Counted from the stretch's first letter, positions 1 through 28,021 are shown. The stretch: DNA of 45,472 bases from Candidatus Fermentibacteraceae bacterium (GCA_021162285.1 JAGGYZ010000329.1:1-45472); one strand, 5' to 3'. Notes: generated from the letters alone by a model not told the origin. Program-made: numbers and translations.

Positions 1-831
1 CATGAGCCGTGGGAATTGGTGATGCGGGCGCAAGCAGCACTGCATAAAGCGAGTAAGAAGTGTGTCTGCAATTCCGGAATGATTGCTGAACTTCATGAGA
101 TTACCGATGAGCTTGAAATCGCATTGAGTGGCGATGAACCCACTGCAGGGGAGGTGATGCGGATACTGGGGCATGAGCTGAAGTCTCCTATTGCTGCCAT
201 TGTAAGCCTTCTGCATGCTGTTGAGATAGGTTATGTGAAGAATCCGGAGAATTCACTGCGGATGATAGGGCGGGCAAGGAAGAGGGCAGAGGAGCTTGTC
301 CCGCTGGTTAATGACATCATGGTTCTTGGTAACCTTTCTGAAACGGATCCGTCGGAGCTTAACGAGAAGGTCAGTATGCTTGAGGTATGCAGGAGCGTGC
401 ATGAACTCATGGAACTGATGTTTGAGGAGAAGGGGATCTGCTTCAAGTTCAAGTACCCGGAATCAGAGCCGTTTCTTCCTGTAAGAGGGAGGGAGAGCTT
501 TCTCAGGAGAGTTGTTCAGAATCTGTGTGTAAATGCATTCAAGTACAACAGAACCGGAGGATGTATCTATCTCAGGGTGTTCTCAGAGGGCTCCGAGGTT
601 GTTGTTGAGATCAAGGATACTGGAATGGGAATCCCAGCAGATGATCTGCCGCATGTGTTTGATTTTCTTTTCAGGGGAAAGCAGGCAAAGAGAAACCCTG
701 ACGGGGGGCTTGGTCTGGGGTTATCAATGGTGAAGCAGATTGTTGATGTTCATGGTGGTTCTATTTCTGCTGAAAGTGAAGAGGGCAGTGGAACAACCAT
801 GACAGTTCGCCTTCCCCTGTACGGGGATTAG
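1..831 (+). CDS. Sensor histidine kinase, transmitter part (HisKA + HATPase_c); the 5' end runs off the window
   Basis: Frame 1 is open from nt 1, upstream of the listed Met at 16. Motifs present: H-box HELKSPIAAI, N-box QNLCVNAFKYN, G1 IKDTGMGI, F-box FDFLFRG, G2 GGLGLGLSMVKQIV. Confidence 0.9.
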   Translation, partial: HEPWELVMRAQAALHKASKKCVCNSGMIAELHEITDELEIALSGDEPTAGEVMRILGHELKSPIAAIVSLLHAVEIGYVKNPENSLRMIGRARKRAEELVPLVNDIMVLGNLSETDPSELNEKVSMLEVCRSVHELMELMFEEKGICFKFKYPESEPFLPVRGRESFLRRVVQNLCVNAFKYNRTGGCIYLRVFSEGSEVVVEIKDTGMGIPADDLPHVFDFLFRGKQAKRNPDGGLGLGLSMVKQIVDVHGGSISAESEEGSGTTMTVRLPLYGD

Positions 832-837
832 GCTGAT

Positions 838-1461
838 TCAGTCGGCATCTTTCATGCTTACAGGCCAGGTGTAGCCTTTGCTGTCTACAGTTACATCCCA
901 AATGGTGTAGGTGTTTCCGGATTCGTCCTCTACATAGATATCATAGGTGTCTGACTGAACATAGGCGGTGTAGGTATCACCGTGATACAGTCTTTCACCG
1001 TTTATGTGATTGTTACCCCAGTCACCACTGCTGGATGGTGACAGCCAGACACCACTGAGGGTTCTGCTTTCAAGATTGTTAGTTACCGCAACTGCACAAT
1101 GTCCTGCGTACTGAACTGTCGTAGCTATATCGATATCATCCAGTGTAACAGTCCAGTTAAATCCGTCTGTGCCTATGCGAACACCCTGAACTGTATAGGT
1201 ATCACCGTCTTCGTCGGTGACCTGCAGGTCGTACACTCCTGGCCTGACCATTACCTCAGCCTCCCGGCCTGGAGCCAGGATATCGGTGCCGGGAAGATGA
1301 TTTGTGCCCCAGATATTGTCTGTGCCTCTGCTGATGTATACGCAGGTGATATCGTAGTTTTCAAGGCCGTTTGTTACAACCAGGGGTACTTTCTCCAGAC
1401 AGCCGGTTGAAAGCACAACACCGACGACTGCCGCCAGGTAGAAAATTGTCTTTCTCTTCAA
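838..1461 (-). CDS. Array gene A: predicted lipoprotein with 2 copies of the unrecognised ~90-aa acidic W-rich module
   Basis: TTG start with AAGGGG about 7 nt upstream. The N-terminus MKRKTIFYLAAVVGVVLSTGC has a basic n-region, a hydrophobic core and Cys21. The two modules each carry VTN-x-L, W-G-x-N, G-x-YD-h-x-V-x-DE-x-G-x-TYT and a D-x-D end. Paralogy with five neighbouring genes supports coding. Confidence 0.88.
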   Translation of the reverse strand: MKRKTIFYLAAVVGVVLSTGCLEKVPLVVTNGLENYDITCVYISRGTDNIWGTNHLPGTDILAPGREAEVMVRPGVYDLQVTDEDGDTYTVQGVRIGTDGFNWTVTLDDIDIATTVQYAGHCAVAVTNNLESRTLSGVWLSPSSSGDWGNNHINGERLYHGDTYTAYVQSDTYDIYVEDESGNTYTIWDVTVDSKGYTWPVSMKDAD

Positions 1462-1512
1462 AACACTGCCCCTTTTTAAACAGTATTACCTGGATGCTTC
1501 AAATTTATTCCA

Positions 1513-1839
1513 TCAGTCCATGTCTGATGGTGCTACTATCCATTCGTAATCTTCAGTCTCTATCTCGATGTCCCATACTGTGTACGTTTTTCCGTATTGA
1601 TCAACAACCTGCAAGTCGTATGTATCCGGAAGAACAGTAATTTCATGGGACTCTCCAGGCTGCAGCACTTTCCAGTCTGGAAGATTGCTTGTTCCCCATT
1701 CTTCCTCGGAGCCACTGCTGACATACACATACTCTATATTCCTGTCCTCCAGACCGTTGGTGATGATGACCTTTGCAGGATCGTAGCATCCCGTTGCAAC
1801 GAGAAACATGAATAGTGCTGTAATTAACAGTTTTGACAT
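1513..1839 (-). CDS. Array gene B: predicted lipoprotein with 1 copy of the module
   Basis: I prefer the ATG at 1839 (GAAAGGAAC SD-like, then 4 nt) over the GTG at 1860. N-terminus MSKLLITALFMFLVATGC. Module: ITNGLEDRNIEYVYV..WGTSNL..LQPGE..YDLQVVDQYGKTYTVWDIEI..YEWIV..SDMD. Confidence 0.85.
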   Translation of the reverse strand: MSKLLITALFMFLVATGCYDPAKVIITNGLEDRNIEYVYVSSGSEEEWGTSNLPDWKVLQPGESHEITVLPDTYDLQVVDQYGKTYTVWDIEIETEDYEWIVAPSDMD

Positions 1840-1855
1840 ATAGTTCCTTTCACTG

Positions 1856-1887
1856 CACACAAAAACAGGGGGCAGGATAGCCCCCTG
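1856..1887 (-). terminator. Rho-independent terminator or attenuator hairpin between array genes C and B
   Basis: An 8-bp GC-rich stem CAGGGGGC (1866-1873) pairs with GCCCCCTG (1880-1887) around a 6-nt loop. On the minus strand it is followed by TTTTT. The A/T flanks also make it potentially bidirectional. Confidence 0.7.
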
Positions 1888-1909
1888 TTTAATGAATCAG
1901 GGCGTGAAC

Positions 1910-2848
1910 CTAGTTCATGTCGGAGAGTTCAACTTCCCAGTAGAAACCGTCTTCAGCAACATCAATATCCCAGAGTGTATAGGAGTCGCCGTCTTCGTCT
2001 TCAACCTTGAAGTCGTAGGTGTTGCCGGCAGGAACGTAGAAAGTGAATTCCTCACCGGGCTCAAGGAGTTCGGAACCAAGGCGGTCTTCGCCCCATGGTC
2101 CGTCGCTTGGATCACCGTACATATACCAGATTGTCCAGTCGCCAAGACCGTTGTAGATGGTGATAGGGGCATCGCCTTCAACGACATCCTCAATGCTTGA
2201 ATCCATGTCGGAAAGCTGTACATCCCACTCAAAGCCATCCTCGCCTACCCAGACATCCCAGAGGTAGTAGTTATCGTCATCTTCATCGGTGCACATGAAG
2301 TCGTAGTAGTCGTTGGCCGGAACGGTAAAGGATACCAATTCTTCCGGTTCAAGAAGCTCGGAACCAAGCCGGTCTTCGCCCCATCCATCTTCTGATGAAG
2401 GGCTGGCGTATGCGTACCAGATTGTCCAGTCGCCAAGCTCGTTTACAAAGGTAACGGTTGCATCCGGAACATTCCAGTCTCCGTCTTCGTAGACAACTTC
2501 CCACTCGTAGTCGTGCTCGTCAATTTCAACGCCGTACCTTGTGTAGATACCGCCGTCTTCGTCTTCAATCCAGAGATCGTAGCTACCGGCATCATCAAGA
2601 GTCAGTGTGAATTCTTCTCCTGGAAGAAGAGGTTCATCAATGAGATTTTCTGACCATGCTGCAGCCTCTGAAGAATCGATCCAGATCTCTGTAACTTCAA
2701 GGTCTTCCAGGCCGTTGATGATAGTAGCCTCGACAATTACATCCTCAACTTCTTCAGTTGTGTCGTTTGCCGGTGCTTCGCCACCACCGCAGGCAAGAAA
2801 CAGTACCGGCAGAGCCAGTAGTGCAATAAACAGATTAAACTTCTTCAA
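1910..2848 (-). CDS. Array gene C: predicted lipoprotein with 3 copies of the module; extremely acidic
   Basis: TTG start preceded by GGAGGG with a 5-nt spacer. N-terminus MKKFNLFIALLALPVLFLACGGG. Three modules at aa ~38-125, 126-216 and 217-312. My hand count is about 85 D/E versus 6 K/R in 312 aa. Confidence 0.9.
   Translation of the reverse strand: MKKFNLFIALLALPVLFLACGGGEAPANDTTEEVEDVIVEATIINGLEDLEVTEIWIDSSEAAAWSENLIDEPLLPGEEFTLTLDDAGSYDLWIEDEDGGIYTRYGVEIDEHDYEWEVVYEDGDWNVPDATVTFVNELGDWTIWYAYASPSSEDGWGEDRLGSELLEPEELVSFTVPANDYYDFMCTDEDDDNYYLWDVWVGEDGFEWDVQLSDMDSSIEDVVEGDAPITIYNGLGDWTIWYMYGDPSDGPWGEDRLGSELLEPGEEFTFYVPAGNTYDFKVEDEDGDSYTLWDIDVAEDGFYWEVELSDMN
1913..2473 (-). repeat. Intragenic tandem duplication (period 288-291 nt) encoding modules 2 and 3 of array gene C
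   Basis: Near-identical DNA blocks recur. TACCAGATTGTCCAGTCGCCAAG occurs at 2124 and 2415. TCGGAACCAAG[G/C]CGGTCTTCGCCCCAT occurs at ~2070 and ~2358. Shared protein runs include GDWTIWY and WGEDRLGSELLEP. Confidence 0.85.
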
Positions 2849-3241
2849 CTTTCCCTCCTTTTGTGTACTTTAAAAATTACCATACCGAACAGGGAACAAT
2901 AAGAGAACACAGCAGCCGAGTAAAGACCATCGTGGACACGAGTCACCAGAGTTGCAGCTTGAACTGATTTCAAAGCTTAGCAGTACATTCCGATCGCTTC
3001 ACTTCGTGCCTGCTGCAGCAGCACAGTAGACACTCTACCATGTGTCTTCACTAACACTGAACCTGCTGTACAGTATTTCCAGGAGCTTGTCCGAGAATAG
3101 ACATTGAGCAACAGCGCCTCACGGACGAGACGAAAAGCATGCCGATTAGAGGATAACAGCAACGCTATTTGACGATGATTGGCGTGTTTTGCAGCCGTTC
3201 GTGTGGTGTCTAATGCCGATGTTGTATTTTCGGTCAGACTC

Positions 3242-3568
3242 CTAGTCTATGTCGGAAAGAGTAACTGCCCAGTCGTATCCGTCTGAACCGATTACAACAT
3301 CCCAGCGCGTGTAAGGATCTCCATCCTCATCAACAATCCTGATGTCATAGGTTCCGGCTGCAACACCGATTGTTACTTCGTCACCCGGCTCCATGATCTC
3401 ACTGATGCGGTTGGTGCTCCATTCGCTGTCTTCAGCAGGGTCAATATTAATTTCTTCGATGTTCCACGCGCCAAGATCGTTGGTAATTTTTACCTGTACC
3501 TGGCCTCCGCAGCCGGAAACAAGAGTTGCGGCAAGTGCCAAGACAAGCAATACTGAAAGCTTCTTCAT
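3242..3568 (-). CDS. Array gene D: predicted lipoprotein with 1 copy of the module
   Basis: I prefer the ATG at 3568 (GGAGGGATT immediately upstream) over the Met at 3607. N-terminus MKKLSVLLVLALAATLVSGCGG. Module: KITNDLGAWNIEEINI..WSTNRI..MEPGDE..GTYDIRIVDEDGDPYTRWDVVIGSDGYDWAVTLSDID. Confidence 0.88.
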   Translation of the reverse strand: MKKLSVLLVLALAATLVSGCGGQVQVKITNDLGAWNIEEINIDPAEDSEWSTNRISEIMEPGDEVTIGVAAGTYDIRIVDEDGDPYTRWDVVIGSDGYDWAVTLSDID

Positions 3569-3625
3569 AATCCCTCCATTTGACTGAGCAGTGTCAACCA
3601 CTGGCACCGCTGTATTTCACCCTCT

Positions 3626-3662
3626 ATAAAATAAGGCAGAGACTGCCGCAGGTAAAGCCTGC
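3626..3662 (-). terminator. Possible terminator after array gene E (two short adjacent hairpins plus a U-rich tract)
   Basis: Read on the minus strand: GCAGG-CTTTA-CCTGC, then GGCAG-TCT-CTGCC, followed by TTATTTTAT. The stems are only 5 bp each. Confidence 0.4.
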
Positions 3663-3692
3663 GCACACATTGAAGTGCTGAGACAGGGTGTG

Positions 3693-4661
3693 TTACGGAA
3701 AAAACTGATCGAGATCGCTCATGGAAACTCTCCAGCTGTTTCCGCCAGCAGACACTGCAATTCCGTACCTGGTGTAGCTGTCATTGTCTTCATCCACAAC
3801 TTTTACATCGTAGGTTCCCGGGTCAAGCAGCAGAGAGTACAGCTCTTTGGGCTCGATACCGGAAGATGCCAGATGGTTTTCACTCCATGTTTCCACTCCG
3901 GAGTTTCTGTGGTATAGACCTGTAATTATCCAGTCACCAAGAGCATTGCAGAGAATCAGTCTGCTGCTTCCCGTACCGGAGCTCTTCATGGTGTACAACA
4001 GACAGTTTTTCGTGATACTGCAGGCTGCAGCAGCCTGATCGGGCAGAGTCAGAGATACTCTGCAGCTGTAGCGATTTCCCATGTCATCTGTGGCGTTAAC
4101 TGTGTAGCTGCCCTGGGAGACTCTGGTGTTCAGTGCTTTCCCCGGGGGAAGAACGAAGGTGCCCAGGATGTTTGGACTGCTTACAGGGTCACCACCTTCA
4201 CAGGTAATGGTGACTGTGTGAATGTTGTGCCATTCCAGTCCATTTGTTATTCTGACCAGGCTTTCTCCGGACCCGGCATAGAACTCTGCATCGGACTCCA
4301 TGATGTGTTCAAATGTGTCGCGATTTGTCATGGATATCTGCACTCTAAGAGTTTCAGCAGCTGCAACGCTGCACCGGTACATCCCTCCTTCGGTATCAGA
4401 TGCCGTCAGTTCTGAACATGCAGCAGGAACAGACAATTGAAGTGTTTCGCCTGGGCGAAGATCACTTTCAATAAGGTTTACAGTTCCACCATCCAGCAGA
4501 ATTCTGTCAAGAGTAATATCTGGAAGTGAGTTTGTCACGAAAATGAGTTTTGTACTTTCGCCTGCACCCGGTTTAAGGAGAAACACAGCTGCAATAGCTA
4601 CAACCAGAACAACCAGCGGTATCGCAAGTTTTCCAGTATTCCTGGTGCTTGTTTTCAGCAC
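3693..4661 (-). CDS. Array gene E: membrane-anchored or secreted protein with 1 canonical and 2 degenerate, Cys-containing copies of the module
   Basis: GTG start 4 nt after the stop of gene F. The N-terminal hydrophobic helix LAIPLVVLVVAIAAVFLL has no lipobox Cys. The C-terminal module is canonical (CNALGDWII..WSENHL..GTYDVKVVDEDNDSYTRYGI..WRVSMSDLD). Two upstream modules keep only VTNSL/ITNGL, L-x-PG and D-x-x-G-x-x-Y. Confidence 0.85.
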   Translation of the reverse strand: MLKTSTRNTGKLAIPLVVLVVAIAAVFLLKPGAGESTKLIFVTNSLPDITLDRILLDGGTVNLIESDLRPGETLQLSVPAACSELTASDTEGGMYRCSVAAAETLRVQISMTNRDTFEHIMESDAEFYAGSGESLVRITNGLEWHNIHTVTITCEGGDPVSSPNILGTFVLPPGKALNTRVSQGSYTVNATDDMGNRYSCRVSLTLPDQAAAACSITKNCLLYTMKSSGTGSSRLILCNALGDWIITGLYHRNSGVETWSENHLASSGIEPKELYSLLLDPGTYDVKVVDEDNDSYTRYGIAVSAGGNSWRVSMSDLDQFFP

Positions 4662-4665
4662 GCGC

Positions 4666-5442
4666 TCAGTCCAATTCGTCCCGATCCAGAGCTGTTACCG
4701 GCCAGAATACTCCGTCCTCGTCAAGTTCAATCTGCCAGAGTGTGTATACGTTGTCGTCAGAGTCCACAACTCTTATGTCGTACACTCCACTTTCCAGCCA
4801 GATTCCCATCTCTGATCCTGAGCCCAGAATGCTTGCCTGAAGCCAGTCTTCACCCCACGAGTCGCTGTTGCCTGGCGAGCAGTACACATTCCATATGGAA
4901 AGATGTTCCAGGTCGTTTCTCAAGGCAAACTCACAGCTGCCACTGCCGGTTGATATGTATGTTGGTGAATCTGTGAGATCAGAGCTGCCACTGGGCAGCC
5001 CGGTTCCTTGCATTGCCTCATTGAAGTACTGCGTAAGGTCCTGAACAAGATTCAGTTTCCATCTGCTTCCATCTCTGATGAATTCGTAGGACCTCACATC
5101 GCCGCCCTGTTCGGAAAGGAGGTAAGCTTTCTCATTTCGAAATTCAACTGATACAACAACATCAGAGAACACAAGAAAGTCGGTTTCTGACACGAGAGAG
5201 GCAAGCAGTTCTTCACCCTGGTTGTTGAACGGAGCACCGGCAGCGGTGTAGATTACTGCTATATCGTCGAGGAGATCTGCAGTTTCATCGGAAAAACCGC
5301 GGGCAAGACCGTGCCAGTTCTCCTGTGAGGCATCTTCCATTAATGTGTTGTAACTGTCGACAACTTCCCTCTGATCGCTGTTCCATCCTATGCATGCAAC
5401 CGCAGACAGGAGAAGGGCGGAAACCATCAGTTGTTTTTTCAA
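4666..5442 (-). CDS. Array gene F: predicted lipoprotein with a distinct ~150-aa N-terminal domain plus 1 C-terminal copy of the module
   Basis: TTG start with AAGGAG 6 nt upstream. N-terminus MKKQLMVSALLLSAVACIG. C-terminal module: LRNDLEHLSIWNVY..WGEDWL..GVYDIRVVDSDDNVYTLWQIELDEDGVFWPV. The N-terminal part (..RSYEFIRDGSRWKLN..) is unrelated to the module. Confidence 0.85.
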   Translation of the reverse strand: MKKQLMVSALLLSAVACIGWNSDQREVVDSYNTLMEDASQENWHGLARGFSDETADLLDDIAVIYTAAGAPFNNQGEELLASLVSETDFLVFSDVVVSVEFRNEKAYLLSEQGGDVRSYEFIRDGSRWKLNLVQDLTQYFNEAMQGTGLPSGSSDLTDSPTYISTGSGSCEFALRNDLEHLSIWNVYCSPGNSDSWGEDWLQASILGSGSEMGIWLESGVYDIRVVDSDDNVYTLWQIELDEDGVFWPVTALDRDELD

Positions 5443-5572
5443 GGCAGACTCCTTTTCCGATTCATTCCAGAGAGAACTCTACCCATTTGAGGTGAGCTGG
5501 TCAACATCCACCTGTTGATTCCTGCTTTTTTGGGTTATTATCGGTGGTAATTAATCCCTTCCGGAGGACTTT

Positions 5573-6433
5573 ATGGATAGAGTTAGTTTTCCCCGTATGG
5601 TTGAGCTTGATGTTGTGACAGGGCTTCCACCAAGGAAAATGCTTGATCACGATCTGCCTGTGCTTCTCAGGTCAATGGGCACAGCAGGGTTGCCCATGTG
5701 CTCTATAATGATAGACATTGATCACTTCAAGAAATTCAACGACAGGTATGGGCATGACATCGGAGATCTGGTTTTAAAACATGTGTCGTCAATTATCAGA
5801 GAAGCTGTGAAATTCAGGGGGGAAGCATACCGTTACGGGGGAGAGGAAATCACAGTTCTTATGCTTAACTCCAGTGGACCGGAAGGGTTGGCAACTGCTG
5901 AGAGAATTTGTTCTGCAGTAGAAAACTCTGTGGTAAAAGCCGTTGTTAGGGGAAAAGAACAGCCTCTCTCAATTCAGATTTCTCTGGGAGTAGCTTCCAC
6001 AGGCTCTGTTGCAGGTTCGGAACTTATTGTTTGTTCCGACCAGGCTTTGTACAATGCGAAGTCAGCTGGAAGGAATCAGGCAGTTCTGTTTAAAAAAGGA
6101 AACAGTAAAGATGTTTCTACAACCGTAATTGATGTTCATTTTCCGTCCAGATCAGCTATTCTGGGAGGCAACTACATACTGCTGAAAAAGTGGTTCAGTT
6201 TCAGTAACCCCACGGACATAGAAGCCAGGGAGATAAAGGATCCAAACACAGACAGCAGTGAATTTGCCGACGGCCCTCCACCTCCATACGGTTTTGTGAA
6301 AGCAGAGATCAGGGGAAGGGTAAGCGAAATTGAACGGAGAGGTAACCATACCTATTTCAAGTTCGAGGTAAAAAGCGAGATCATTGATCTGATGTTCAAG
6401 TACATTCAGGATACCCGCAATGCAGCGAATTAG
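5573..6433 (+). CDS. GGDEF-domain protein (putative diguanylate cyclase) with no N-terminal sensor and an unassigned ~113-aa C-terminal extension
   Basis: GGAGG SD 5 nt upstream. Motifs: DVVTGLPPRKML, DIDHFKKFNDRYGHDIGD and the active-site motif RYGGEEI. There is no RxxD I-site in the expected position (KFRG there instead). Confidence 0.9.
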   Translation: MDRVSFPRMVELDVVTGLPPRKMLDHDLPVLLRSMGTAGLPMCSIMIDIDHFKKFNDRYGHDIGDLVLKHVSSIIREAVKFRGEAYRYGGEEITVLMLNSSGPEGLATAERICSAVENSVVKAVVRGKEQPLSIQISLGVASTGSVAGSELIVCSDQALYNAKSAGRNQAVLFKKGNSKDVSTTVIDVHFPSRSAILGGNYILLKKWFSFSNPTDIEAREIKDPNTDSSEFADGPPPPYGFVKAEIRGRVSEIERRGNHTYFKFEVKSEIIDLMFKYIQDTRNAAN

Positions 6434-7862: not shown

Positions 7863-8737
7863 TGAGTTCTATTGACTGGACCGATCCGGTTGCCGTTGCC
7901 GAAGTACTGGTAAAAAATGCAGTTCTCGAGGACAGAGCACTGGATGACGAGGCCTCCGGAGCACTGGCTGAATCAGGTAATACCCTGGTTTCGTGCATTG
8001 TTAACGCCAGGGAAAACATTGTAGTGGCCGGTGTTAAGCTTGCAGCAGCAGTTTTTCCCCTGATACCGGGAAACATCCGGGTAGAGAGTTTCGTTGAAGA
8101 AGGGCAAAGCATCGAGACCGGAGGGAATATTGCCGGTATATATGGCCCGGCTGCGTCAATACTCCGCGGAGAAAGAATATTTCTGAACATCCTGGGGCGG
8201 TTGTGCGGGATTGCAACTGAAACTGCAGAGTTCGTTCGAGCCTGCCAGGGTACAGGTGTTGAGATACTTGATACCAGAAAAACAACTCCAGGTATGCGTG
8301 CACTTGAAAAGTATGCAGTCCGTATGGGGGGTGGAGTAAACCACAGGTTTTCACTTGCAGACATGGCTATGCTCAAAGACAACCATCTTGCTGCTGCTGG
8401 CGGTGCCGGAAGTCTCGCTCCAGTTGTGCAGAGACTGCGTGAAAGGGATGTTTCCATTGAAATAGAAGTTGACTCTCTTTCTCAGCTGAAGGCAGTTATT
8501 CCCCTTGAACCTGACAGAATACTTCTTGACAACATGTCCGCAGATGAGCTGAGGAGAGCAGTCTCGCAGGCAGCAGGAAGCGGTATATACCTTGAAGCAT
8601 CTGGAGGAATTACTCTGGAAACGGTCAGAGCTGTTGCAGAAACAGGAGTTGACGGTATTTCTGTGGGCATGTTGACTCACTCGGTAAAGTCGTCGGATAT
8701 TGGCCTGGACTGGCTGTATACTAAGGAAGGTAAATGA
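7862..8737 (+). CDS. nadC: Nicotinate-nucleotide pyrophosphorylase (quinolinate phosphoribosyltransferase)
   Basis: Motifs: ILDTRKTTPGMRALEKYAVRMGGGVNHRFSLADMAMLKDNH, then EVDSL, LLDNM and EASGGI. Its start overlaps the previous stop (TAATG). Confidence 0.93.
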   Translation: MSSIDWTDPVAVAEVLVKNAVLEDRALDDEASGALAESGNTLVSCIVNARENIVVAGVKLAAAVFPLIPGNIRVESFVEEGQSIETGGNIAGIYGPAASILRGERIFLNILGRLCGIATETAEFVRACQGTGVEILDTRKTTPGMRALEKYAVRMGGGVNHRFSLADMAMLKDNHLAAAGGAGSLAPVVQRLRERDVSIEIEVDSLSQLKAVIPLEPDRILLDNMSADELRRAVSQAAGSGIYLEASGGITLETVRAVAETGVDGISVGMLTHSVKSSDIGLDWLYTKEGK

Positions 8738-9501
8738 CAAGACTCGCTATTGATGTTGGAAACACGAAGACCGCTCTTGCTCTATTTGAAGCAGACAAAC
8801 TTCTGGGGCAGTGGAGAATCAGAACTCAGAGGTGGACTGCTGATGAGCTCAGAATTTACACAGAGGCGTTGCTTCGCGGTGAGAATTTTTCTAATCCAGA
8901 TGATGTTGCCTTCGCCTGCGTTGTTCCCCAGGTTCACCACACCATTATCAACATGTGCAGAAAATGGTTGAAAATCACACCGGTGGATGTATCTTTCTCC
9001 ACAGCCGGGATTGAACTGAGCTACAGGTATCCCCATGAAATAGGACCGGACAGGCTTGCTAACGCAGTTGCGGCAGTAATATACGGTAGGCTTCCTGCTA
9101 TTGTGGCGGACTTTGGAACGGCAACAACTTTCGATGTGATTGACAGCAGCGGAAAGTACCTTGGAGGGGCAATAAGCCCCGGGGTGGGAACATCTGCCGG
9201 AGAACTGTTCAAGAAAGCTGAAAGACTGAATCCCATCGACCTGTCATTTCCTGAGAGCGTAGTTGGAAAAACAACTGCTGATGCTATCAGATCAGGTGTT
9301 CTTTTCAGTGCCGTTGGTGCAGCTGATCACATCATAGACTTGATTTCATCCGAGCTGGATTCTGCTCCCGAGCTCTGGGCTACTGGAGGGTGGGGAACTG
9401 CTCTTGGAGATAGATGCAGGAACAAATTCAGGATATGTCCGGAACTTACATTGCTGGGAATAAACGAGATTGGACGAAAAAACAGAGAGGAAGGGAATTG
9501 A
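8734..9501 (+). CDS. coaX: Type III pantothenate kinase
   Basis: Motifs: LAIDVGNTKT, GPDRLANAVAA, VADFGTATTFD, ATGGWG. ATGA overlap with nadC. Confidence 0.92.
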   Translation: MTRLAIDVGNTKTALALFEADKLLGQWRIRTQRWTADELRIYTEALLRGENFSNPDDVAFACVVPQVHHTIINMCRKWLKITPVDVSFSTAGIELSYRYPHEIGPDRLANAVAAVIYGRLPAIVADFGTATTFDVIDSSGKYLGGAISPGVGTSAGELFKKAERLNPIDLSFPESVVGKTTADAIRSGVLFSAVGAADHIIDLISSELDSAPELWATGGWGTALGDRCRNKFRICPELTLLGINEIGRKNREEGN

Positions 9502-10049
9502 TGGCTGAAATCCTTCTAGGTGTAACTGGTGGTGCTGCGGCTTTTAAGGCTGTCAGCGTTGCTTCGCTTCTGAGGAAATCGGGGCACACGGTGAACTGCA
9601 TACTTACAAAAGCCGCCACTGAATTTGTTACTTCCGTGCAGCTTTCATCGGTCTCCGGAACACCTTGCTACACGGATCTGTTCTCATCTCCTGCGGAAAA
9701 CTCCATTCCCCACATTACCCTTACTGAAAATGCAGATCTGATGGTTATCGTTCCGGCAACTGCTCATTTTCTGGCAAGAGCGGCCCATGGTCTTGCTGAT
9801 GATCTTCTCACCACATCTTTCCTGGCCTGTTCAGCACCGGTTCTGATTGCTCCTGCGATGAATACCAGGATGTGGAACAACCCTGCTGTTCAGGCAAATG
9901 TGAAGATTCTTTACTCCCGTGGTATCAGTTTTGCAGGTCCCGTATCAGGCAGCCTTGCCTGCGGTACCACCGGAGAGGGAAGAATGGTGGAGCCCGCTGA
10001 TATTGTGGAGGTCTGTGCCGAAATTCTGAAAACCGGCGGTAAGAAATGA
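9501..10049 (+). CDS. coaC: Phosphopantothenoylcysteine decarboxylase, stand-alone flavoprotein (CoaC domain only)
   Basis: The start is the in-frame ATG at 9501 (TGATG overlap with coaX), not the Met at 9414. Motifs: GVTGGAAAFKA, VPATAHFLARAAHGLADDLLT, APAMNTRMW, GSLACGTTGEGRMVEP. At 182 aa there is no CoaB (CTP-ligase) half. Confidence 0.85.
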   Translation: MAEILLGVTGGAAAFKAVSVASLLRKSGHTVNCILTKAATEFVTSVQLSSVSGTPCYTDLFSSPAENSIPHITLTENADLMVIVPATAHFLARAAHGLADDLLTTSFLACSAPVLIAPAMNTRMWNNPAVQANVKILYSRGISFAGPVSGSLACGTTGEGRMVEPADIVEVCAEILKTGGKK

Positions 10050-11065
10050 AACCAGTCCCGACCCTTGAGTGGCGTGATGACCATCTGGTACTGCTGGATC
10101 AGAGACTTCTCCCTTCAGAAGAGGTTTACCTTGCCTGCAGATCAACAGCAGTGCTTGCTGAAGCAATCAGAACACTTGCCGTCCGGGGTGCCCCTGCAAT
10201 CGGCATAGCGGCGGCATACGGTGCTGTTATCGCTGCCATGGAGACTCCCGGGTCATCCGGGTTTGTGAAGGAATGCAGCAGCCGTCTGGATCTGCTTGCC
10301 TCAACAAGACCCACTGCGGTAAACCTGTTTTACTGTCTTGATATCCAGAGAGAGATTCTGCTGGCATCAAAGTCGAAATCGGATGCTGTAGACCGTTTGC
10401 TTGTCAGTGCTCAGCGTCTCTTCAGGGAAGATCTGGAAGCCAGCAGGATAATGGGCAGCCTGGGTGCCGATCTGCTTCCGGAAAGCTGTACTGTTCTTAC
10501 TCACTGCAATGCAGGAGGACTTGCAACTGCAGGTCTTGGAACAGCTCTATCGGTAATTTACGAGGCTCATTCCAGGGGAATTCTCTCTGGAGTTTATGCC
10601 GATGAAACAAGACCGCTTCTTCAGGGGGCCAGACTTACCTCATGGGAACTGCAGAAAGCAGGTATTCCTGTAAAAGTACTCCCTGATTCTGCAGCTGCTT
10701 CGCTGCTTTTGACAGGAGCTGTTGATGCTGTGATTACAGGTGCGGACAGGATAGCAATGAACGGCGATTCCGCCAACAAAATAGGAACTTATCCTCTGGC
10801 TCTGGCAGCTTTTGAAGCAGGTGTACCTTTCTACATAGTAGCACCAGTCTCCACATTTGACCCTGCAGCTGCAGACGGCGGTTTCATCGAGATAGAGGAG
10901 AGAGGCAGAGAAGAGCTGGCGGTTTGGGGAGGTAAAAAAACTATTCCTGACGGTGTCGGTGTCTATAACCCAGCTTTTGATGTTACTCCTGTTAGATTAA
11001 TTACATCCATTATCTGTGAGAAGGGTGTAATTTCAGCTCCGAACACTATTGAATGGCGAGGTTGA
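10046..11065 (+). CDS. mtnA: S-methyl-5-thioribose-1-phosphate isomerase (eIF-2B alpha/beta/delta family)
   Basis: Motifs: VRGAPAIGIAAAYG, STRPTAVNL, THCNAGGLATAGLGTAL, DETRPLLQGARLT, GADRIAMNGDSANKIGTY. ATGA overlap with coaC. Confidence 0.88.
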   Translation: MKPVPTLEWRDDHLVLLDQRLLPSEEVYLACRSTAVLAEAIRTLAVRGAPAIGIAAAYGAVIAAMETPGSSGFVKECSSRLDLLASTRPTAVNLFYCLDIQREILLASKSKSDAVDRLLVSAQRLFREDLEASRIMGSLGADLLPESCTVLTHCNAGGLATAGLGTALSVIYEAHSRGILSGVYADETRPLLQGARLTSWELQKAGIPVKVLPDSAAASLLLTGAVDAVITGADRIAMNGDSANKIGTYPLALAAFEAGVPFYIVAPVSTFDPAAADGGFIEIEERGREELAVWGGKKTIPDGVGVYNPAFDVTPVRLITSIICEKGVISAPNTIEWRG

Positions 11066-27274: not shown

Positions 27275-27334
27275 AGAAAGATATCGCAGTGTATGGTGAT
27301 TATTAAAAAACGGGTAATTGAGAATGGAGGGGTA

Positions 27335-28021
27335 ATGGCGCTGGAAAGGAAGATCCAGGATCTCCTGGCGAGACGCACAGAACTTGCCGAAAGGCTGTCT
27401 AATCTTGAGACCATGAAGCCGGAGACTAACCAGAGGGTTTACTCCAGAATCAAGAGCGATTACGATAATCAGCTCAATGATGTTCTGGGCAAGCTTGGTG
27501 CCGAAAAGGGTTCTTTAGAGGGAAAAGTCAGCGATCTCACAACGAAGATCAATGAACTTGAGCAGAAGCATCAGAACGAGGCTGACCTTGTAGAAGAACT
27601 CAAGATCAGAGCAAGGCTCCGTGAGCACGATGAAAATGATCCCAGTTTTCAGAAGGATCTAGATGCTGCGACCAAGAAAAGCAACACAACAGCTGGCGAG
27701 CTCGATGGTTTCCGTTCGGAACTGGGAGACCTGAAGAAGGTTCTTAGAGATGTTGAGGAAGCTACACAGGGTAAAGCGGCTAAAGGTGGTTCATCCAAGG
27801 CAGCACAAGCACCTTCCGACGATGACAGCCTCGATGAGCTCGATCTCGATGATGACGATATTGACTTGGAAGAAACGGAAGATGAATCAGTAAAATGTCC
27901 GTCATGCGGGCATATGAATCCTCCGCAGAAGCTTTTCTGCGAGGATTGCGGTGCCGCTCTCGATGAAGAGGGTGAAGAAGACGATTTTGATCTTCTAGAC
28001 GATGCGGATCTCGACATCTAA
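27335..28021 (+). CDS. Hypothetical coiled-coil protein with a poly-acidic tract flanking a C-terminal zinc ribbon
   Basis: ATG at 27335 preceded by GGAGGGG. About 150 aa of heptad-like, K/E/L-rich sequence come first. The C-terminus reads DDDSLDELDLDDDDIDLEETEDE, then CPSCG..x11..CEDCG, then EEGEEDDFDLLDDADLDI. Confidence 0.8.
   Translation: MALERKIQDLLARRTELAERLSNLETMKPETNQRVYSRIKSDYDNQLNDVLGKLGAEKGSLEGKVSDLTTKINELEQKHQNEADLVEELKIRARLREHDENDPSFQKDLDAATKKSNTTAGELDGFRSELGDLKKVLRDVEEATQGKAAKGGSSKAAQAPSDDDSLDELDLDDDDIDLEETEDESVKCPSCGHMNPPQKLFCEDCGAALDEEGEEDDFDLLDDADLDI

Follow-up and report, generated by a model that had tools for sequence, protein, structure and literature searches.

Six tandem genes of a Candidatus Fermentibacteraceae bacterium carry copies of an acidic, tryptophan-rich module that defines a widespread bacterial domain family absent from Pfam-A and NCBIfam

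We analyzed a stretch of 45,472 nucleotides from Candidatus Fermentibacteraceae bacterium (GCA_021162285.1 JAGGYZ010000329.1:1-45472), called the window below, in which a first-pass annotation made from the sequence alone had pointed out an array of repeat-bearing genes. Open reading frame (ORF) calling in the window gave six consecutive minus-strand ORFs, named g1 to g6, which span positions 838-5442. Their products are predicted to be six membrane-tethered extracytoplasmic proteins that consist almost wholly of acidic, Trp-rich beta-sandwich modules. The ~88-residue module represents a domain family that is widespread in bacteria and absent from Pfam-A and NCBIfam as searched, and the six-gene locus is one lineage's expansion of this broadly used domain, not a unique invention. 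We propose, with a probability of about 0.5, that the module is a non-catalytic extracytoplasmic unit for binding or targeting.

A seed hidden Markov model (HMM) made from two single-module proteins detected 2, 1, 3, 1, 3, and 1 module copies in g1 to g6, the same numbers that the first-pass annotation had given. When we used a family HMM based on 156 modules, all from external homologues, ten of these copies were unambiguous, with domain independent E-values (iE) of 5e-37 to 5e-13. The remaining copy, g5a, scored 12.2 bits, on a par with the highest-scoring of 1,200 composition-matched shuffled proteins (12.1 bits), and we therefore consider it marginal or degenerate. No ORF outside g1 to g6 matched the family HMM in the whole window. 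Membrane tethering was called by a PROSITE PS51257-type rule, which asks for a basic n-region, at least 6 uncharged residues, and [LIVMFWSTAG]2-[LIVMFYSTAGCQ]-[AGS]-C within the first ~35 residues. The rule held for g1, g2, g3, g4, and g6 and did not hold for g5, which has a hydrophobic segment, in agreement with the earlier description of five lipobox proteins and one protein with a transmembrane anchor. The genes and their predicted parts are as follows, with iE values from the family HMM.

838-1461, minus strand: g1, 207-residue lipoprotein with two modules
1399-1461, minus strand: g1 signal peptide and lipobox LSTGC (Cys21), fits the lipobox rule
1129-1398, minus strand: g1a module, iE 4e-33
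841-1107, minus strand: g1b module, iE 2.5e-29
1513-1860, minus strand: g2, one-module lipoprotein, lipobox VATGC (Cys18), fits the rule from the ATG at 1839
1516-1785, minus strand: g2 module, iE 1.3e-30
1910-2848, minus strand: g3, 312-residue lipoprotein with lipobox FLAC (Cys20), an acidic linker, and three modules
2477-2743, minus strand: g3a module, iE 1e-25
2201-2470, minus strand: g3b module, iE 1e-32
1913-2179, minus strand: g3c module, iE 5e-37
3242-3607, minus strand: g4, one-module lipoprotein, lipobox LVSGC (Cys20), fits the rule from the ATG at 3568
3245-3508, minus strand: g4 module (g4a), iE 6e-33
3693-4661, minus strand: g5, 322 residues, three modules, N-terminal transmembrane segment or uncleaved signal anchor, no lipobox
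4575-4628, minus strand: g5 transmembrane segment or signal anchor, residues 12-29, an 18-residue hydrophobic segment with no Cys
4296-4559, minus strand: g5a module, marginal, lacks W30, G31, and D57, iE 5e-5
3996-4271, minus strand: g5b module, degenerate, iE 5e-13
3708-3974, minus strand: g5c module, canonical, iE 1.5e-26
4666-5442, minus strand: g6, 258-residue lipoprotein with lipobox AVAC (Cys17) and one module after an N-terminal domain
4678-4944, minus strand: g6 module, iE 2.7e-30
4993-5391, minus strand: g6 N-terminal alpha+beta domain, residues ~18-150 (~130 residues), from an AlphaFold2 (AF2) model

The true starts of g2 and g4 are likely the internal ATG codons at 1839 and 3568, respectively, the latter preceded by a GGAGG Shine-Dalgarno-like sequence. 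Each start gives a product of 108 residues, which matches the relatives: the counterparts of g2 have 108-109 residues, and a g4 relative that is 99% identical (P0163; P and L numbers are our handles for relatives) has 108. All six proteins stop 0-4 residues past the terminal D-x-D/N motif of the module; the first-pass annotation had allowed up to 7 residues.

The 11 module segments have 22-42% identity to the first one, and N10, L12, D62, Y68, and D88 are invariant among them. Nine of the 11 belong to the family with its signature essentially intact, at 78-115 bits. Conservative swaps were found at G31, which is Ser in g3a, g4a, and g5c, and at L35, which is Ile in g1b, g3a, and g4a. Modules g5a and g5b kept N10 and the hydrophobic pattern of the strands, and W30, G31, and D57 are gone. 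The module had been described as acidic and Trp-rich, and the composition bears this out: the six proteins contain 11-27% Asp plus Glu (D+E) and 1.2-5.1% Trp and have isoelectric points (pI) of 4.05-4.8, with g3 at 27% D+E, 5.1% Trp, and pI ~4. The medians of the window are 12.7% D+E, 1.06% Trp, and pI 5.4 (30 other ORFs examined). Across the whole module family we counted 18.8% D+E, 4.0% Lys plus Arg (K+R), and 3.5% Trp. Acidity and Trp content are a family-wide trait and not peculiar to the six-gene locus. Proteome acidity of the halophile type was ruled out as the cause of the low pI, as the other ORFs in the window have pI 5.4 and 12.7% D+E compared with 18.8% in the family.

We next asked how widely the module occurs. 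We searched 1.84 billion cluster representatives (50% identity) exhaustively with the profile, and it matched 2,450 of them at E<=1e-3, 547 at 1e-10, and 64 at 1e-30. The matched representatives typically carry 2-8 tandem copies, and lipoproteins of modules alone have 1-8. The family was seen by this exhaustive search; a word-index homologue search retrieved almost solely close g4-like proteins. Sources that name the homologues call them 'hypothetical protein' or give them a generic automatic label, for example 'archaellum component FlaF' or 'predicted small secreted protein', and the named hosts include Candidatus Fermentibacteraceae, Sabulitectum, Aegiribacteria, and Fermentibacterales, by which the window is assigned to Fermentibacterota. 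We also scanned one genome per GTDB species with the back-translated core signature Y[VI]Y[VI]SP-x5-WGxDxL, resulting in at least 119 loci, and every listed locus has an ORF that is positive with the family HMM. The listed loci span at least ten phyla and belong mostly to Chloroflexota (Anaerolineae, Thermoflexia, Ardenticatenales, and Dehalococcoidia) and Fermentibacterota. Other hosts listed are Latescibacterota, Marinimicrobia, Cloacimonadota, Myxococcota (Sandaracinaceae), Spirochaetota, Bacteroidota, Acidimicrobiia, Bacillota, and Alphaproteobacteria, including the isolate Zavarzinia sp. CC-PAN008.

Alignment of 515 distinct modules revealed N10 in 99%, W30 in 95%, L35 and D57 in 92%, G31 in 91%, Y56 and G44 in 84%, D62 in 82%, and D33 in 78% of them (with Asn at this last position in another 17%), and the family signature reads N...YxY[IV]SP-x5-WGxDxLG...G-x-YD. 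Hence the N-terminal two-thirds of the consensus that had been drawn by eye from the window are family-wide (N10, Y21, W30-G31-x-D33-x-L35, G44, Y56-D57, and D62), while its DEDGD..YT.W stretch and terminal SDxD are typical of the Fermentibacterota lineage only. Modules without W30 mostly lack D57 as well (odds ratio 18.5, p 7e-17, modules counted without correction for phylogeny).

Two further observations concern other branches of the family. Many modules of the Chloroflexota type (e.g. L046, L056, and P0016) have a pair of conserved Cys, located in strand 2 (I-C-Y-V-Y) and in the turn between strands 4 and 5 (D-C-D-G), which suggests a subfamily-specific disulfide; in the modules of the window, Glu replaces the second of these Cys. 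The metagenome-assembled genome CBDDFZ01 (Alphaproteobacteria) has at least six dispersed single-module genes (L013, L031, L035, L061, L086, and L119), and this expansion is scattered, compared with the tandem array of the Fermentibacterota.

Comparison of the copies with each other and with related genomes indicates that the array is old. The DNA encoding YD..V.DEDGD is 60-77% identical in ten copies over the best-conserved 35-42 nucleotides, which argues for old duplications. In Candidatus Sabulitectum, the gene order GGDEF, g6, g5, g4, g3, g2, g1, histidine kinase is that of the window, and all genes have one-to-one orthologues (46-72% identity in g1 to g6 and 64-85% in the flanking genes), suggesting that the paralogues of the array are old and individually retained and not hypervariable. 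Recent amplification and a hypervariable surface antigen were ruled out by the DNA identity of 60-77% together with the one-to-one orthologues in related genera. Orthologues of g1 are present at L001, L121, and L123, and the orthologues of g5 share its three-module layout with either a transmembrane anchor (P0026 and P0039) or a lipobox (P0025). In a more distant relative, GCA_002900505, g5 is missing and g3 has two modules.

We compared the module with catalogued families and solved structures. Pfam-A (2025 copy) and NCBIfam had no model at cut-off for the six proteins, with best scores of 11-17 bits for assorted beta-sandwich families, and module profiles matched none of the PDB sequences below E 0.1; the earlier statement that the module falls into no known Pfam family agrees with this result. 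From the 11-module alignment, AF2 predicted an all-beta structure of six strands (mean predicted local distance difference test score, 92.5; predicted template modeling score, 0.80) in which a long ordered loop joins strands 2 and 3. A search of the PDB with Foldseek gave one match below 1e-3, the luminal beta-sandwich of HGSNAT, with a template modeling score (TM-score) of 0.63. A weaker tail consisted of generic sandwiches, namely 2mca (TM-score 0.61), the pVHL beta domain, the transthyretin-like domain of carboxypeptidase D, and DUF3858. The best matches overall reached TM-scores of 0.61-0.65 (HGSNAT luminal domain and 2mca), and all were non-enzymatic beta-sandwiches. CBM41 was matched with TM-scores of 0.41-0.47 and E 0.07-0.1, and the search of viral folds in BFVD returned nothing below E 1e-3. 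As modeled, the module is a small beta-sandwich without a close solved or catalogued relative in the libraries searched.

The first-pass annotation had also likened the module to PEGA and CarboxypepD_reg domains. To place the family, we scanned 117 relatives with Pfam. The most frequent matches, all below threshold for each stretch, were ATS3 (18 relatives) and CarboxypepD_reg (10 relatives), and further matches included EMC7, fn3_3, NOMO_5th, X25, and PEGA, among others, as well as SpaA and SdrD_B. In every inspected relative, the Pfam score was the sum of partial matches, one per module. PEGA (PF08308) had no match on the six proteins and matched 1 of the 117 relatives at E 1.6e-4, and the carbohydrate-binding families were found below threshold only (CBM49 in 1 relative and X25_BaPul_like in 3). 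ATS3 (PF06232), for which a full-length match above 27 bits is required, reached 40.8 bits at best when summed over stretches, none of which passed by itself; only ~30 of its 125 profile positions (~66-100) matched, once per module, in the stretch CYVYISP..WG. It matched none of the six proteins in the window. The small beta-sandwich predicted earlier stands, and its likeness to CarboxypepD_reg and clan-mates shows in sub-threshold Pfam matches and in the Foldseek match to the transthyretin-like domain of carboxypeptidase D.

We read these matches as a remote affinity to the transthyretin/prealbumin-like clan, in agreement with the guess of the earlier reader. The module could even be an ordinary, divergent member of the CarboxypepD_reg/transthyretin-like clan that a sensitive profile-profile search would file there, independent of its function. 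CarboxypepD_reg (PF13620) aligned over almost its full length with single modules of two distant relatives, at positions 10-77 of 82 in P0109 (45.8 bits summed) and positions 5-80 of 82 in P0037 (34.1 bits summed), so that nearly the whole profile corresponds to one whole module. Besides the 10 relatives with sub-threshold CarboxypepD_reg matches, others matched its clan-mates NOMO_5th, fn3_3, SpaA, and SdrD_B, and the transthyretin-like 5aq0 (TMq 0.49, E 0.036) and 3e8v (TMq 0.50) were in the Foldseek list. However, not a single stretch passed in any protein, including P0109 and P0037, and the best score in the window was 13.0 bits (g5, E 0.14) against a gathering threshold of 32.3 bits. ATS3 was matched by more relatives than CarboxypepD_reg, the fold similarity to the transthyretin-like domain was limited (TM-score ~0.5, E 0.04), and we know of no counterpart of the long conserved WGxDxLG loop in the CarboxypepD_reg family. 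Overall, we regard membership in this clan as possible but doubtful; the clan is functionally heterogeneous, so filing the module there would not give its function.

Proteins outside the window carry the module in informative arrangements. Lipobox-like N-termini were present in 86 of the 151 top profile hits and in 62 of the 134 module ORFs of the listed genome loci. A group of Ser/Thr kinases (P0078, L034, L046, L051, L056, L063, and L111) consists of the kinase, a Pro-rich linker, one transmembrane helix, and two C-terminal modules, and these modules should lie outside the cytoplasm because they are C-terminal to the sole transmembrane helix. From such topologies, the module is predicted to be always extracytoplasmic. 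Fusions confirmed by Pfam have the module C-terminal to Trypsin_2 with or without PDZ (P0008, P0049, P0095, L026, L080, and L094), to Peptidase_C14 (P0088), and to matrixin (P0124); others combine it with TIR and PPC (P0133) or cohesin/dockerin (P0105). A motif scan of the 134 module ORFs identified a trypsin-like catalytic motif in 12 and a kinase motif in 6. No catalytic family ever matched inside the module in the Pfam scans. The non-enzymatic binding or matrix role at the surface or in the periplasm that the first-pass annotation suggested is consistent with the lipoboxes, with this lack of catalytic matches, and with the accessory use of the module on peptidases and kinases elsewhere.

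In Anaerolineae, we also observed lipoproteins with two modules followed by a conserved C-terminal domain of ~190 residues that ends with ...VCLDNLRVWRLE (L006, L007, L088, L090, and L092); the same domain follows one module in L069 and L091. It had no Pfam match at 1e-4 and is perhaps another uncatalogued domain that accompanies the module. By the same cut-off we dropped DUF1080/LamG as an identity for the C-terminal domain of L006, L069, and L091 and a discoidin-like domain in L003.

As the module is fused to peptidases more often than to any other partner (Trypsin_2, alone or with PDZ, the caspase P0088, the matrixin P0124, and the trypsin-like motif in 12 of 134 ORFs), the module might bind proteins or peptides in connection with proteolysis, as a substrate recruiter, an inhibitor or pro-domain, or a holdase, with the stand-alone lipoproteins regulating envelope proteases or protecting against them. 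A match of g3 to BsuPI, a proteinase inhibitor, points in the same direction, but at 11 bits it is far below the threshold of 22.9 bits. No protease gene was identified beside the array in the window or in relatives, the contexts with kinase and cohesin/dockerin need no link to proteases, and PPC, PKD, and PDZ domains often ride on secreted proteases merely for targeting. We think that a dedicated role in proteolysis is distinctly improbable.

We return to our proposal of a non-catalytic binding or targeting unit. The putative binding site would consist of the loop between beta2 and beta3 (W30-G31-x-D33-x-L35) packed on Y56-D57 of beta4 and would recognize a constituent of the envelope or of the extracellular matrix. 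We infer this site from the conservation of 91-95% across many phyla and from the coupled loss of W30 and D57. The modules g5a and g5b, which keep N10 and lose W30 and D57, suggest that the fold requires N10 and that W30/D57 have some other role. Strand periodicity alone indicates that W71 and D57 could be exposed to solvent. As each protein has one to three copies and there are six paralogues, the locus would provide multivalent, membrane-proximal binding, and elsewhere the module would deliver binding to secreted peptidases and serve as the sensory ectodomain of Ser/Thr kinases. Our leading, though speculative, guess for the ligand is a glycan or a polymer of the cell wall, and the conserved Asn/Asp may hold Ca2+ as well; the grounds are circumstantial and comprise the multivalency, the signature of aromatic plus acidic residues, and the types of proteins that carry the module. 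Taken to its full extent, the proposal describes a phylum-spanning sensor or recognition domain whose site (N10, W30-G31-x-D33, and D57) would bind one specific molecule derived from the envelope, for example a fragment of cell wall or exopolysaccharide, possibly with Ca2+; it would act as input for kinases and as targeting device for proteases, and the Fermentibacterota paralogues would form a set that binds matrix or envelope. We put forward this extended version tentatively and would not bet on it as a whole.

Several points weigh against such a binding function. The high conservation of the Trp-Gly loop and the strand Asp could be purely structural, and the association of W30 and D57 is a raw odds ratio over modules that ignores their kinship. 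Sub-threshold matches to X25, CBM49, SusE, and fn3_3, and one to SGBP-B at E 0.7, hint at carbohydrate binding in a weak and generic way, and the anchors were called by the PROSITE-type rule alone. Finally, at 12 diverse loci outside Fermentibacterota, the neighbours, compared as unannotated ORFs by size and N-terminus, included no recurring partner.

The module might instead be an inert architectural bead, perhaps stabilized by Ca2+, that sets distances or projects catalytic and kinase domains and has no specific ligand. Tandem arrays of up to 8 copies with Pro/Thr-rich linkers, generic Ig/transthyretin-like fold matches, and the membrane-proximal copies of g5, which are without the signature yet kept in the orthologues, would all be expected of a spacer. 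However, the single-module lipoproteins g2 and g4 are conserved across genera and have nothing to space, five positions are conserved at 91-99% across many phyla, which is rare for spacers, and in the kinases the module is the sole ectodomain. Hence, a mere spacer appears unlikely.

Alternatively, the acidic envelope proteins could buffer cations or bind metals (Ca2+, Mg2+, or other metals) near the membrane, given the 18.8% D+E and 4.0% K+R of the family, the 27% D+E and pI ~4 of g3, and the conserved Asp/Asn at positions 10, 33, 57, and 62. Much of the acidity resides, however, in variable positions and linkers, no known family of Ca-binding motifs matched in the Pfam scans, and the Trp/Gly/Leu signature and the fusions to kinases and proteases would be left unexplained. 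We consider this role very improbable.

The surroundings of the array contain the following features.

5573-6433, plus strand: GGDEF diguanylate cyclase gene, divergent from g6 (Pfam GGDEF 1e-33; adjacency kept in L121, L122, and L124)
16-831, plus strand: histidine kinase gene (HATPase_c), convergent with g1 (Pfam 2e-28; adjacency kept in L001, L121, and L123)
1861-1890, minus strand: terminator hairpin CAGGGGGC-TATCCT-GCCCCCTG plus T5, right after g3 and before g2 (fold -22.7 kcal/mol)
5476-5504, minus strand: sigma-70-like promoter match in the 130-bp divergent g6/GGDEF region, a weak, single consensus match, with fewer found than in shuffles
2849-3241, no strand: non-coding g4-g3 spacer of 393 bp with GGAGG just upstream of the g3 start

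The hairpin at 1861-1890 has a GC-rich stem of 8 bp and was not listed by a consensus terminator scan, which reported a terminator-like site after g5; the gap between g6 and g5 is 4 bp. Terminators after g3 and g5 suggest that the array probably comprises several transcription units and not one operon. The g4-g3 spacer is unusually long, with 393 bp here versus ~134 bp in Candidatus Sabulitectum. A module remnant in the spacer was ruled out by a six-frame HMM search, and Rfam gave no match to it at gathering thresholds. It holds just one ORF of 61 codons (2977-3162), the reality of which is doubtful. In the protein encoded next to g6, the GGDEF domain covers residues 12-169, and the C-terminal ~115 residues had no Pfam match. 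At L001, a related JGI contig, an extra two-module gene (9683-10297, plus strand) lies ~6.7 kb from the array, past genes for a glycosyltransferase, an aminotransferase, and a methyltransferase; this copy has no counterpart in the window.

The N-terminal domain of g6 was modeled by AF2 as four helices followed by a four-stranded sheet and a helix, with a predicted local distance difference test score of 80.9 (~85-90 in the core). It matched no Pfam family and gave no significant fold match in the PDB, with only a faint resemblance to designed NTF2 folds, and is possibly NTF2-like. The domain is shared by 13 orthologues from Fermentibacterota, and the C-I-G-W at their lipidation site is invariant.

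The remaining genes of the window are those of an ordinary chromosome and encode DnaK/DnaJ, MutS2, DnaG, a sigma factor, NadC, CoaX, an ABC importer, a SurA/PpiD-like periplasmic chaperone, HolA, and Asd. As listed, the CoaX ORF (8734-9501, plus strand) and a flavoprotein ORF (9414-10049, plus strand) overlap by 88 bp; the flavoprotein probably starts at a later codon, as its orthologue in Candidatus Sabulitectum has 182 residues compared with 211. An ORF of 242 codons at 27293-28021 (plus strand) encodes a protein with 25.6% D+E, no Trp, and no Pfam match, which is unrelated to the module.

The family comprises at least ~2,450 clusters (50% identity) in many phyla and mostly uncultured lineages (Chloroflexota, Fermentibacterota, and Latescibacterota), and Pfam labels the proteins erratically or not at all. 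Its definition would provide an annotation profile for thousands of 'hypothetical' envelope proteins and a handle on the ectodomains of Ser/Thr kinases, especially in Chloroflexota, and on the domains that target secreted proteases of the HtrA-like, caspase-like, and matrixin types. With ~88 residues in its mature form, g4 is a small, well-predicted single-domain protein that is tractable for structure determination and ligand screening. No concept is overturned, as tandem accessory beta-sandwiches on envelope proteins are a familiar theme, and the family is comparable to a new domain of unknown function with informative fusions.

Among known systems, ATS3 (plant embryo-specific protein 3) was the most frequent sub-threshold Pfam match (18 of 117 relatives), but the match is partial (~30 of 125 positions) and absent from all six proteins of the window. 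SusE/F and SGBP-B of Bacteroidota are likewise lipid-anchored and made of several small beta-sandwiches with exposed aromatic residues, and the locus in the window is also multivalent and expanded by paralogues. In contrast to these systems, the array has no context of SusC/D or glycoside hydrolases and is flanked by the genes for the GGDEF protein and the histidine kinase, and the sequence matches are insignificant (SGBP-B, E 0.7; SusE, 18 bits).

The CarboxypepD_reg/transthyretin clan (PEGA, fn3_3, SpaA, SdrD_B, and NOMO) resembles the module as a small (80-90 residues), all-beta accessory unit that is often in tandem, secreted or at the surface, and located beside peptidases. Both have the G-x-Y-D-h-x-V hairpin, and there are weak profile and Foldseek matches. 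The module differs by its conserved 20-residue loop (SP-x5-WGxDxLG), the invariant Asn that ends beta1, the strong acidity, and the six predicted strands, compared with seven in the transthyretin-like fold, and no Pfam model passes at the level of domains.

DUF4384, PPC, PKD, and PEGA are accessory beta-sandwiches on bacterial caspases, proteases, and Ser/Thr kinases. The module resembles them as a C-terminal or extracellular non-catalytic unit on proteins with Peptidase_C14, trypsin-like, matrixin, or Pkinase domains, but it did not match them in the Pfam scans (apart from PEGA in 1 of 117 relatives), and PPC is a separate domain in P0133. The PASTA domains of PknB-type kinases are unrelated in fold and sequence, and among kinases the module is found mainly in those of Chloroflexota (L034, L046, L051, L056, L063, and L111). 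As a functional analogy only, both are small extracellular modules that follow the single transmembrane helix of a Hanks-type kinase in tandem and are also present in envelope proteins other than kinases. If the module does act in sensing or recognition, it would be the input domain of a large group of Chloroflexota Ser/Thr kinases, analogous to PASTA.

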